This document shows, one piece after another, positions 12,025 to 15,279 of a DNA stretch of 23,498 nt. The DNA lies in the IMG/VR virus record IMGVR_UViG_2537561944_000018; one strand, 5' to 3'. The notes beneath the pieces are model-generated. The model was given only the letters and a program-made list of their open reading frames with translations. It was not told the origin of the DNA and ran no database searches. Source of the stretch: a virus. Lineage: Duplodnaviria > Heunggongvirae > Uroviricota > Caudoviricetes. The translations under genes were made by a program, and so were the position numbers. Every line of letters starts with the position of its first letter. Within the stretch, counting starts at the first letter, position 1.

Positions 12025-12327
12025 ATGAGCAGAAAAACCCAACGTTACTCTAAAGAGTTCAAAGCCGAAGCTGTCAGAACGGGTCTCGAAAATCAACTTT
12101 CGATCAGTGAAGGCGCTTCCCGATTATCTCTTCCTGAAGGCACTTTAGGACAATGGGTTACCGCCGCCAGAAAAGGGCTCGGTACTCCTGGTTCCCGCAC
12201 GGTGGCTGAACTGGAATCTGAAATTCTGCAACTGCGTAAGGCGTTAAATGAAGCTCGCCTTGAGCGAGATATATTAAAAAAAGCAACAGCGTATTTTGCA
12301 CAGGAGTCGCTGAAAAATACGCGTTAA
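12025..12327 (+). CDS. IS3-family transposase OrfA (HTH), 100 aa
   Basis: ATG at 12025; MSRKTQRYSKEFKAEAVR... typical IS3-family OrfA with a leucine-zipper-like C-terminus. Confidence 0.8.
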   Translation: MSRKTQRYSKEFKAEAVRTGLENQLSISEGASRLSLPEGTLGQWVTAARKGLGTPGSRTVAELESEILQLRKALNEARLERDILKKATAYFAQESLKNTR

Positions 12328-13181
12328 TCGAACAATGGCGACAACAATTTCCCATTGAAGCGATGTGTCAGGTATTTGGTGTATCCAGGAGCGGTTATTA
12401 CAACTGGGTACAGCATGAACCCTCAGACAGAAAACAAAGTGATGAGCGGCTAAAACTGGAGATTAAGGTGGCACATATCCGCACTCGCGAAACATATGGA
12501 ACCCGGCGGCTCCAGACGGAGCTGGCAGAGAATGGCATCATCGTTGGTCGTGACCGACTGGCACGTCTTCGTAAGGAGCTAAGGCTACGCTGTAAGCAGA
12601 AACGCAAGTTCAGAGCGACTACGAACTCGAACCACAATCTGCCAGTTGCGCCAAATCTGCTGAACCAGACGTTCGCTCCTACAGCACCAAATCAGGTCTG
12701 GGTGGCGGACCTGACGTATGTTGCCACACAGGAGGGATGGTTGTACCTCGCTGGCATCAAAGATGTTTATACGTGCGAAATTGTCGGCTACGCCATGGGA
12801 GAGCGCATGACAAAAGAGCTGACAGGTAAAGCTCTGTTTATGGCGCTCAGGAGCCAGCGCCCACCTGCCGGGCTAATCCACCACTCTGATCGAGGTTCAC
12901 AGTACTGCGCATACGATTACCGGGTCATACAGGAGCAGTTTGGTCTGAAAACATCAATGTCGCGTAAAGGTAACTGTTACGACAACGCTCCGATGGAAAG
13001 CTTCTGGGGAACGCTGAAAAATGAGAGCCTGAGCCACTATCGTTTTAATAACCGGGATGAAGCCATCTCAGTAATACGGGAATACATTGAGATTTTCTAC
13101 AATCGTCAGCGTCGTCACTCTCGTCTGGGGAATATCTCCCCGGCAGCCTTCAGGGAAAAATATCATCAGATGGCTGCTTAA
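12264..13181 (+). CDS. IS3-family transposase OrfB (DDE/rve integrase domain), made as an OrfAB fusion by -1 frameshift
   Basis: The -1 frame is open from 12264; slippery A AAA AAA G at 12276-12283 inside orfA; DDE motifs (...HHSDRGSQY...YDNAPMES...). Confidence 0.75.
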   Translation, partial: ARYIKKSNSVFCTGVAEKYALIEQWRQQFPIEAMCQVFGVSRSGYYNWVQHEPSDRKQSDERLKLEIKVAHIRTRETYGTRRLQTELAENGIIVGRDRLARLRKELRLRCKQKRKFRATTNSNHNLPVAPNLLNQTFAPTAPNQVWVADLTYVATQEGWLYLAGIKDVYTCEIVGYAMGERMTKELTGKALFMALRSQRPPAGLIHHSDRGSQYCAYDYRVIQEQFGLKTSMSRKGNCYDNAPMESFWGTLKNESLSHYRFNNRDEAISVIREYIEIFYNRQRRHSRLGNISPAAFREKYHQMAA

Positions 13182-13728
13182 AAAAAGAACAAATGGTAGT
13201 GTCCGCTATTGCCAGTACACCTCACCGAACTGGTAACGCAACACCTGCTGGCTGAGGAAAGGCTTTACCATCGGTTTCCGCTACGGATGCAGCTTCCGGC
13301 TCTGCCGGTAAATCAGCGCCCGGTATGCAGTAACGAAATTTACCGCCCTGATTCACGCGAATCAGACGCCCTTTGCTGATTACCATGGCCAGCGATGAAT
13401 TCGCCCGGCGGGAGGTAATCCCGAACATCAGTGCCAGCTCATCCGCCGTTTGTGGGCCATGTTGTTCAATCGCCTCAGTCAGCATTTGCGCTGTCACTTT
13501 CGGTACCGGTGACACCGGTTCACTTTCACCAGCCTGAATCAGCCACCACATCGACCCCTTGTTATCCGCTTCACCGCGGCGCTTCAGTTTCCACAGTTCG
13601 TTGACCGCATCTTCACGGCTGATTCCAAGGCGGGCCGCCACTACCTGTGAAGAGGCTCTTTTCAGTGCTTTCAGTGCGTCAAATACGGTTTCCATTAAAA
13701 TTTCCTCCGACAAAATCGTTTCTCAGAT

Positions 13729-14391
13729 TCAAATAAAACCAGCTGCCTTCCGGCGTTCGTATTCCTGTTTCAGCCGCTCAATTGGCGTTGGCCCTTGCGG
13801 GTGTTTCGCCCCTTCCAGTTGTCGTCGCACTGGCGGAACACTCATCCCGTTACCAACATGCTTTGCCCATTTCGTCAGTTGCCGTTCTGCAAGTAGTTTT
13901 AACTCACCCTGCGTCATCTGGCGCTCAATCCCTCTGGTACGCATTTCGAGGCAGATGTGGTACAGCACAGGCTGTGGCCACGGGTATTTATCACTCCCGT
14001 CGTATCGCCAGGATTCATTGCGCCAGCGCCGGTACTCTTCCATCACGGCATCCACCGTAAGACCAAATGGATTTGCCCCACTCTCCGAAATCAGCGCAAC
14101 AAACTCAGCCAGGTCCGGGGGCCACGTTTCACCCGCCCGGCAGCGGTCCATGCACTGACGGCAGACCAGACGGATTTGCTGTTCAGTCATCGCACCAATC
14201 TGGGCAATCCAGAGCTTCGAAGGTGCGGCCCCGTTCTTCTGAGTCCAGCGGTTCGAATACACCTCCCCCATAAGCTCCCACAGCTTCCAGGCCGTTTCCG
14301 TTGCTGATAAATCCGTTTTCACGTTCCCACTGTTCGCGTGCTGCCCGGATTTCCTGAACTGCCCGTGATGCCGTGCCACCTGATGCTGCAT
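13729..14391 (-). CDS. Lambda P-like replication protein (helicase loader), 220 aa if started at 14391
   Basis: C-terminal two-thirds resemble lambda P as recalled; ATG 14391 has AGGGGG 6 nt upstream but overlaps the O-like gene by 209 nt; in-frame ATGs also at 14271 and 14190. Confidence 0.6.
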   Translation of the reverse strand: MQHQVARHHGQFRKSGQHANSGNVKTDLSATETAWKLWELMGEVYSNRWTQKNGAAPSKLWIAQIGAMTEQQIRLVCRQCMDRCRAGETWPPDLAEFVALISESGANPFGLTVDAVMEEYRRWRNESWRYDGSDKYPWPQPVLYHICLEMRTRGIERQMTQGELKLLAERQLTKWAKHVGNGMSVPPVRRQLEGAKHPQGPTPIERLKQEYERRKAAGFI

Positions 14392-15193
14392 GGCTTACCC
14401 CCTTGCTGACTGGTTTTACCTGTGCCCTGACGTGCTGCACGTGGCGGGCAAATTTCTGCTCCCACTGAACCTGCGTGAAAACCTTCCCCTCCGCCATCCA
14501 GTAATCCCGGAATGCGGCAAGCTCAGCAGGTGTAAATTCCGGCTCAGGCAGAGCCATACCCCACACTGCTGCCCGTTGTCGAAAATCCGGCGACGGCTGC
14601 CAGACAGTAGTCATCGAAAATTTCCCGATCGGTTCGCTCAGGCCGTCCAGGTATTCAGGTTCGGCTGTCTGCAACGGCGCACCATGCGACTCACTGGTCG
14701 GAATACTCTCGCGTTCACGCACGTTATGTGTGGGGTTTAATTCTTTTAGATCTGTATCTTTATTAGTTGCTTTTGTGTTTGCGTCATGTTCAAACACAAC
14801 ACCAACATTTGTTTGAACACCTGTTAAATCTCTCTCTTGTTTTGTTTGAACATATGCTTCCTTTCTGCTTCTTCTGGCCTGAACAGATGCTTTTCCGGCG
14901 GCTGATTTTTTGGTCAATTTTTCCCTGACTGATGCCAGATCTTCCTCAATCCGAAGATGCACCCATTCATCGCTGTTATCGCAAAAAAACTCCCGCAAGG
15001 ATGGTTCCACATCAGCCCATCGCTCGTTAGTCAGACGGGAAATTTTTGCCAGCCTGTTTTTAGGTATTGGTTTCCCTGTTTGCCAGTAATTGAACATCAG
15101 CAACAAATACGCACCGTGCTCCTCTGCGGACAAATGCATGGTGTCAGCCAGGTAATCAGCTATGTACAGTTGCATGTATGGTAATGCGGCCAT
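14183..15193 (-). CDS. Replication initiator, DUF1376 N-terminal domain (O-like / YdaU-like), 336 aa
   Basis: ATG at 15193 with GAGG 5 nt upstream; MAALPYMQLYIADYLADTMHLSAEEHGAYLLL DUF1376-type N-terminus. The track ORF starts at TTG 15247. Confidence 0.7.
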   Translation of the reverse strand: MAALPYMQLYIADYLADTMHLSAEEHGAYLLLMFNYWQTGKPIPKNRLAKISRLTNERWADVEPSLREFFCDNSDEWVHLRIEEDLASVREKLTKKSAAGKASVQARRSRKEAYVQTKQERDLTGVQTNVGVVFEHDANTKATNKDTDLKELNPTHNVRERESIPTSESHGAPLQTAEPEYLDGLSEPIGKFSMTTVWQPSPDFRQRAAVWGMALPEPEFTPAELAAFRDYWMAEGKVFTQVQWEQKFARHVQHVRAQVKPVSKGVSHAASGGTASRAVQEIRAAREQWERENGFISNGNGLEAVGAYGGGVFEPLDSEERGRTFEALDCPDWCDD

Positions 15194-15279
15194 AATTGCC
15201 TCATCTTGTGACGAACCATCCTCTGGTGATATTCTGTGATTCCCCAATCAACAGAATCAGCAGGGGTCTGGCATAAATA

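Follow-up and report, generated by a model that had tools for sequence, protein, structure and literature searches.

A conserved 209-nt out-of-frame overlap between the initiator and helicase-loader-like genes of a phage replication module

The window analyzed here is a DNA stretch of 23,498 nt from a tailed virus (Caudoviricetes; IMG/VR record IMGVR_UViG_2537561944_000018). Two replication genes are found on its minus strand: an initiator ('O-like') gene at 14183..15193 and a gene for a helicase-loader-like protein, P, at 13729..14391. The genes share 209 nt (14183-14391), with P in the +1 frame; position 1 of a P codon is thus position 2 of an initiator codon, and the wobble base of P coincides with initiator codon position 1. 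A YdaT-like gene flanks the pair upstream and a DUF1627 gene downstream.

The initiator has 336 aa, from ATG 15193 to the stop codon TGA at 14185-14183; matches in Pfam and PDB and the same CDS in RefSeq support this assignment. The reading frame is already open from TTG 15247 (354 codons), with ATG 15193 as the likely start. The protein carries both domains that define a DUF1376/DnaT-domain phage initiator ('YdaU family'): DUF1376 (PF07120) at residues 5-87 (90.6 bits, E-value 8.8e-26) and the DnaT-like ssDNA-binding domain (PF17948) at residues 192-258, encoded by 14420..14620 (62.6 bits, E-value 2.8e-17). Solved DnaT structures in PDB match the initiator at about 1e-20 (best 1.2e-20), and AlphaFold pLDDT is 76-91 over residues ∼181-260. 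The AT-rich stretch 14700-14860 of the initiator gene (33-38% GC) encodes a disordered linker, residues 118-175, and contains copies of TGTTCAAACA and TGTTTGAACA at 14787-14796, 14810-14819 and 14838-14853; these are candidate origin iterons, as in lambda the O gene contains the ori. In homologue P0130, this AT-rich linker region contains a tandem duplication.

The P protein has 220 aa and matches Phage_lambda_P (PF06992) over residues 58-187 (profile positions 31-161) with 56.1 bits against a cut-off of 26 (E-value 4.9e-15). Lambda P itself is a weak sequence match in PDB, and the hhalign probability is 91.6%. Judged by homology, P would bind the host DnaB helicase and deliver it to the initiator-origin complex. 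Three in-frame ATG codons come into question as the start of P: the one at 14389..14391, located within initiator codons His267-Ala268 (CAT GCA) and preceded at a distance of 6 nt by the Shine-Dalgarno sequence AAGGGGG (14398..14404; -11.8 kcal/mol in a duplex with the 16S 3′-end); the Met41 codon at 14269..14271, a possible secondary start; and the Met68 codon at 14188..14190, which is the start in RefSeq and GenBank and which we regard as an internal residue. The first-pass annotation had taken the initiator frame to 14183 and had pointed to ATG 14391 with its Shine-Dalgarno; both placements are exact, with AAGGGGG at 14404-14398 and TGA at 14185-14183. It also considered that P might start later or that the initiator might be frameshifted.

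As for the surroundings of the module, an IS3-family insertion sequence occupies 12025-13226 of the window (plus-strand ORFs 12025-12327 and 12363-13181); RefSeq names it IS600 in a 100%-identical genome. The DUF1627 gene (minus strand, 13222-13695) is cut short by the end of the element near 13226; the intact gene, in E. coli O26 11368, encodes 241 aa. In NZ_CP074826.1 the module is found in two pieces around IS600 and the initiator appears in the annotation as two proteins, 'YdaU family' and 'DnaT-like'; thus, the initiator was split by the insertion.

Prophages with 100% identity to the stretch occur in E. coli O26, O103 and other strains, and the module has matches in 2,250 of 5,426 complete E. 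coli genomes. Loci for the comparative analysis came from species-representative genomes (37) and viral contigs (80). The comparison covered 29 distinct loci, which extend from Escherichia to Yersinia, Serratia and Erwinia, and 21 deep lineages were used in joint tests. An overlap measuring 182-224 nt recurs in some 30 species-representative genomes with P identities as low as 42-50%, in genera ranging from Escherichia to Pectobacterium, Serratia, Rahnella, Rouxiella, Yersinia and Erwinia. In these ∼30 loci an ORF of 300-395 aa in the same relative frame stops 46-61 nt before the P motif WPPDLAEF, and an ATG in the P frame precedes the initiator stop by 182-224 nt. Several loci depart from this layout. 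In Leclercia (L035) and Symbiopectobacterium (L038) the P frame is broken, and the conserved residues of the P N-terminus are encoded in a different frame; these copies are frameshifted and probably decaying. Two Erwinia genomes (L029, 2426-3052; L036, 2474-3043) have stand-alone intact P-like genes of 208 and 189 aa, adjoining what appear from sequence to be a ttcA-like chromosomal gene and a large gene for a PTS-transporter-like membrane protein; they are possibly prophage remnants or domesticated loaders. Phage vB_Apl-pPE4 (PP818812.1), with Actinobacillus pleuropneumoniae as recorded host, has a module that is 87.6% identical in DNA to the E. coli one, a closeness not expected with a Pasteurellaceae host.

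The alignment of 30 P homologues (43-91% identity) showed strong conservation from about residue 35, with residues 1-34 variable and containing indels. The conserved block reads AWxLWExMGEIYSNRWxxKNGxxPSxLWIAQIG; M41, R48, W49, K52, N53, G54, P57 and W61 are nearly invariant, and the motif AWxLWE is situated upstream of Met41. The ATG equivalent to 14391 is kept in 29 of 29 distinct loci. Its A and T belong to an initiator codon that reads CAT in 13 loci, AAT in 13, TAT in two and GAT in one; NAC was seen in none, while NAT makes up 46% of such codons in neighbouring initiator sequence, and the next initiator codon always begins with G. Since the initiator residue varies (H, N, Y or D) and the ATG is fixed, selection acts here on the start of P and not on the initiator. 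In every overlapped locus this upstream ATG has the strongest Shine-Dalgarno among the in-frame candidates (-5.0 to -12.6 kcal/mol); the values are mostly -4 to -6 kcal/mol for the Met41 ATG and about -2 kcal/mol for the Met68 ATG. The P frame is open from the upstream ATG in all lineages, with a joint chance of ∼3e-5 (the product of per-lineage values for 21 lineages, which are not fully independent). The start signals lie within the initiator linker, residues 259-275 (14369..14419), which is variable and predicted to be disordered (pLDDT <50 for residues 262-275), and which shows poor conservation in the initiator frame except for the motif GG-x-(H/N/D/Y)-(A/V/G). We conclude from these sequence comparisons that P starts at ATG 14391.

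Some other considerations on the P start gave no signal. The candidates GTG 14379 and GTG ∼14322 are unconserved, with Shine-Dalgarno energies of -0.4 and -2.8 kcal/mol, and were rejected. The region 14340-14450 around the start does not fold better than shuffled controls (z = -0.24), which gives no sign of a structured regulatory RNA. In comparison with lambda P, hhalign similarity was not found before residue 85 of P; therefore lambda cannot be used to place the P start directly.

Conceivably, P could start at Met41 (ATG 14271), giving 180 aa and an overlap of 89 nt, with ATG 14391 little used or not used. Met41 is nearly invariant, its Shine-Dalgarno-like energies range from -1.5 to -9.3 kcal/mol, many database entries of 177-181 aa begin there, and residues 1-25 of P are unconstrained and predicted to be disordered (pLDDT <50). 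However, conservation in the P frame, together with the substitution pattern described below, begins at codons 30-35, upstream of Met41; a start at Met41 would cut in half the confidently predicted helix 24-45; and in one lineage, L019, Leu replaces Met41 and a start codon is missing there. The orphan P genes of Erwinia, which have no initiator gene beside them, start 31 or 16 codons upstream of Met41 and keep a motif of AWxLWE type (PAWRLWDLM or PVWQLWDTM). The retention of the upstream ATG and its Shine-Dalgarno against initiator codon usage is also difficult to reconcile with an unused start. We thus find it unlikely that Met41 is the principal start. Still, the leader of P shows no amino-acid constraint, and what speaks for its translation is the open frame with its conserved start signals; a shorter, 180-aa P from Met41 may also be made, or may even predominate.

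At the other end of the overlap, the first stop in the initiator frame is the one at 14185-14183; with no earlier in-frame stop, ribosomes must read the initiator to 14185. Twenty-six initiator homologues, some with other N-terminal modules, finish at the same place, and in 27 of the 29 diverse loci the frame is read to about the same stop. In the remaining two (L021 and L032) the initiator stops 11 codons earlier (23 instead of 34 codons after the hand-over of constraint described below), and in a few lineages the stop is found up to five codons later. Within the overlap, residues S276, R277, A278, V279, I282, A285 and W289 are invariant; they belong to a conserved amphipathic helix, SRAVQEIRAAREQWERENG (residues 276-294; 14312-14368), the last conserved element of the initiator. 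The AlphaFold model shows, after the DnaT domain, a disordered linker (262-275), an isolated helix (277-292) and a disordered tail (296-336; pLDDT <50), which includes the sequence GGGVFEPLDSEER.

To evaluate whether the tail is kept open, we resampled synonymous codons of P in the 21 deep lineages and counted stops in the first 23 initiator codons after the hand-over. There were 0 stops in the initiator frame against 18.8 expected (joint P ∼8e-10, with lineages not fully independent). In a control on the non-overlapped part of P we observed 140 stops against 149.7 expected, thus the resampling is calibrated. Conditioned on zero stops, acidic residues in the tails number 101 (75 expected) and basic residues 41 (72 expected). 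By these tests the initiator tail is kept open and acidic by selection. Constraint on its particular sequence was not detected: P synonymous diversity is 0.086 in this part against 0.084 in the rest of P, and the entropy comparison over 21 lineages was not significant. As the P synonymous sites are here as variable as elsewhere in P, the tail would be without sequence-specific constraint.

The absence of such constraint, the predicted disorder of the tail and the earlier stops in L021 and L032 would agree with an accidental origin of the long tail, by frameshift or by loss of a stop codon in a prophage undergoing decay, with the ancestral end of the initiator near 14290-14390. Against this, nearly the same end is seen in 27 of 29 loci and in the inducible phage Rac-SA53, and the avoidance of stops, measured with a calibrated control, is accompanied by the acidic bias. 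Moreover, the conserved helix 276-294 is encoded inside the overlap, which makes an initiator end near 14391 impossible. An accidental tail is therefore a very improbable explanation, and a frameshifted initiator, one of the options of the first-pass annotation, does not agree with these data; nor did homologues show an initiator ending near 14391.

In sum, both frames are open and conserved in distant relatives, stops are avoided in both, and conserved start signals of the downstream gene reside within the upstream one. Given its recurrence and the signatures of selection at both ends, the geometry of the overlap exceeds chance. The comparative sequence evidence confirms that the overlap is real and old, and kept by selection across many enterobacterial genera, as the first-pass annotation had allowed.

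We assessed how constraint is divided between the two frames with a set of 50 distinct close relatives (88-100% DNA identity). In the first part of the overlap (14290..14391), where P codons 1-34 lie over initiator residues 268-301, diversity is 0.096 at initiator position 3, and 0.030 and 0.001 at positions 1 and 2; the initiator invariants and pLDDT values of this part agree with constraint on the initiator frame. In the second part (14186..14289), where P codons 35-68 lie over initiator residues 302-336, diversity is 0.086 at P position 3, and 0.005 and 0.001 at positions 1 and 2. The region coding for P only has a diversity of 0.084 at P position 3. Constraint thus switches frame at P codons 30-35. 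In the 21 deep lineages, synonymous sites of P vary in the overlap as much as elsewhere in P.

Purifying selection on both proteins at the same nucleotides was not seen in the overlap; constraint is partitioned, so that almost no nucleotide is bound by both frames at once. Selection in the unconstrained frame is limited to start signals, an open frame and charge. The expectation of the first-pass annotation that 69 codons would be dual-coding is correct in that both frames are open and conserved, but the partition, which leaves hardly any doubly constrained nucleotide, was unforeseen. In terms of predicted structure, each protein has a disordered extension written over the conserved segment of its partner. 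The locus is thereby a clean natural case of two old genes sharing ∼200 nt with almost no evolutionary conflict.

Public annotation treats the P gene differently. The RefSeq record NC_013361 has the same initiator CDS, but P begins there at the ATG equivalent to 14190 and has 153 aa, with an 8-nt overlap; the records of phages Rac-SA53 and vB_Apl-pPE4 likewise have a P of 153 aa and an 8-nt overlap, and the Stx2_14040/PPompW records have a P of 140 aa and zero overlap. Other database entries of P have 215-223 aa (common) or 177-181 aa. As the records differ in P length, it is clear that the P start is treated inconsistently in databases.

A start at Met68 (ATG 14190), used by PGAP and by three phage records, would place the ATG 5 nt before the initiator stop, a layout permitting termination-reinitiation, and P would be coupled to termination of the initiator as in lambda. 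Such coupling was not supported at ATG 14190, which is unconserved and has a weak Shine-Dalgarno (∼-2 kcal/mol). Position 68 is Leu, Phe or Cys in many lineages, which already contradicts Met68 as the sole start. The 153-aa protein would lose 34 strongly conserved residues that are under selection in the P frame; the Pfam P domain begins already at residue 58 (profile position 31); and lambda P has 93 residues before the block aligned to residue 85 of P. We give this start hardly any credence. More generally, selection and conserved residues in the P frame reach upstream of both 14190 and 14271, which speaks against the first-pass suggestion of a later start. RefSeq and the three GenBank phage records inspected, with a P of 153 or 140 aa, thus drop the conserved N-terminal region, and correction of the start alters the protein to be used in structural or functional work.

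Programmed frameshifting producing an initiator-P fusion, for which one might cite a 333-aa protein joining DUF1376 and Phage_lambda_P domains (P0106), has a negligible probability: P is in the +1 frame and cannot be reached by ordinary -1 slippage, a geometry on which we rejected the idea, no in-frame stop or rare-codon pause site is visible at the hand-over, P has its own conserved Shine-Dalgarno and ATG, and P0106, found in a single contig, is probably the result of a frameshift or deletion fusing initiator and P.

We consider it probable, from the sequence evidence, that both genes are translated over 14183-14391, with P starting at 14391 and with constraint partitioned between the frames. 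The initiator would be read from 15193 to TGA 14185-14183, while P would initiate in the +1 frame at ATG 14391, which together with its Shine-Dalgarno is accommodated in the variable linker of the initiator. Conflict between the frames would be avoided by the partition: ∼34 unconstrained, presumably disordered leader codons of P overlie the amphipathic helix of the initiator, and the last ∼35 initiator codons would encode a disordered acidic tail, with a sequence dictated by the conserved N-terminal region of P. In analogy to the O-P pair of lambda, the N-terminal region of P may be docked by the helix and tail of the initiator. Ribosomes translating the initiator frame would cross the start site of P, and this may set the ratio of the two proteins.

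The C-terminal part of the initiator appears to be modular. We observed that a linker-helix-tail of ∼70 residues is joined to several unrelated types of initiator, always overlapping P: DUF1376 with DnaT, as in the window; a 'replisome organizer' N-terminus with DnaT; DUF1376 with a T5orf172 insert; Phage_rep_O (L017); DUF1376 without DnaT (L019 and L022); and initiators with no Pfam match (L021, L026 and L032). By analogy, we infer that tail and P travel as a portable unit, with the tail docking P. Because the 5′-end of the P gene contains the coding sequence of this putative docking element, tail and loader would be inherited together, as a single recombination unit attachable to different origin-binding domains.

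One could speculate further that this unit is a portable coupling cassette. The last ∼70 residues of the initiator (linker, docking helix and acidic tail), being encoded in the 5′-end of the loader gene, would supply a cognate handle to any origin-binding domain recombined upstream, and the out-of-frame overlap would bar recombination from parting handle and loader. We put this forward tentatively, as a possibility that we ourselves hold to be doubtful; if true, module exchange in the replication regions of temperate phages would follow a general design rule of this kind. The sharing of the tail gives, in any case, a testable hypothesis on how lambdoid phages could keep initiator-loader specificity although their modules are constantly swapped.

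Out-of-frame overlaps of such length in phages are already known, as are both protein families; what is new is the reciprocal, partitioned overlap of initiator and loader, and its tie to the swapping of initiator modules. Neither the overlap nor the module is described in the searchable literature on DUF1376, replication protein P and lambdoid replication, and two papers on Stx-phage replication regions (PMC8044961 and PMC8951638) contain nothing on them.

Among the closest known systems are the Rac-type prophage replication genes ydaU/ydaV of Rac-SA53 (KU052037), with 90.8% DNA identity over 95% of the query (window 13700-15250, both genes). This phage also shares the neighbours dicA, dicC, a ydaT-like gene and the DUF1627 gene; its record does not annotate the long overlap.

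The lambda O-P pair has the same order, initiator and then helicase loader. Residues 94-204 of lambda P align to P, both proteins being Phage_lambda_P members, and one relative of the module (L017) has a lambda-type Phage_rep_O N-terminal domain. In lambda, the C-terminal part of O recruits P through the N-terminal part of P. However, the overlap of O and P in lambda measures just 4 nt (39582-39585), compared with 209 nt here, where the start of P is deep inside the initiator gene; the initiator here is a DUF1376 and DnaT-domain protein and not lambda O; and the N-terminal region of P has no detectable similarity to that of lambda P.

The host protein DnaT of E. coli, a 179-aa replication restart protein working with PriA, PriB and DnaC, has in common with the initiator the C-terminal DNA-binding domain. 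Unlike in DnaT, the domain is here part of a phage initiator, and behind it come a helix and an acidic tail overlapping a loader of the lambda P type.

Overprinted gene pairs are well known in phages and viruses, e.g. A/B/K and D/E of phiX174 and Rz/Rz1 of lambda. The present pair resembles them in same-strand, out-of-frame dual coding over >100 nt and, as in many such pairs, constraint at each position falls on one frame, while the other codes for a disordered segment. Unlike in those pairs, there is no embedded gene and no new protein: two old genes extend disordered ends over each other, with a single hand-over of constraint and few doubly constrained bases.
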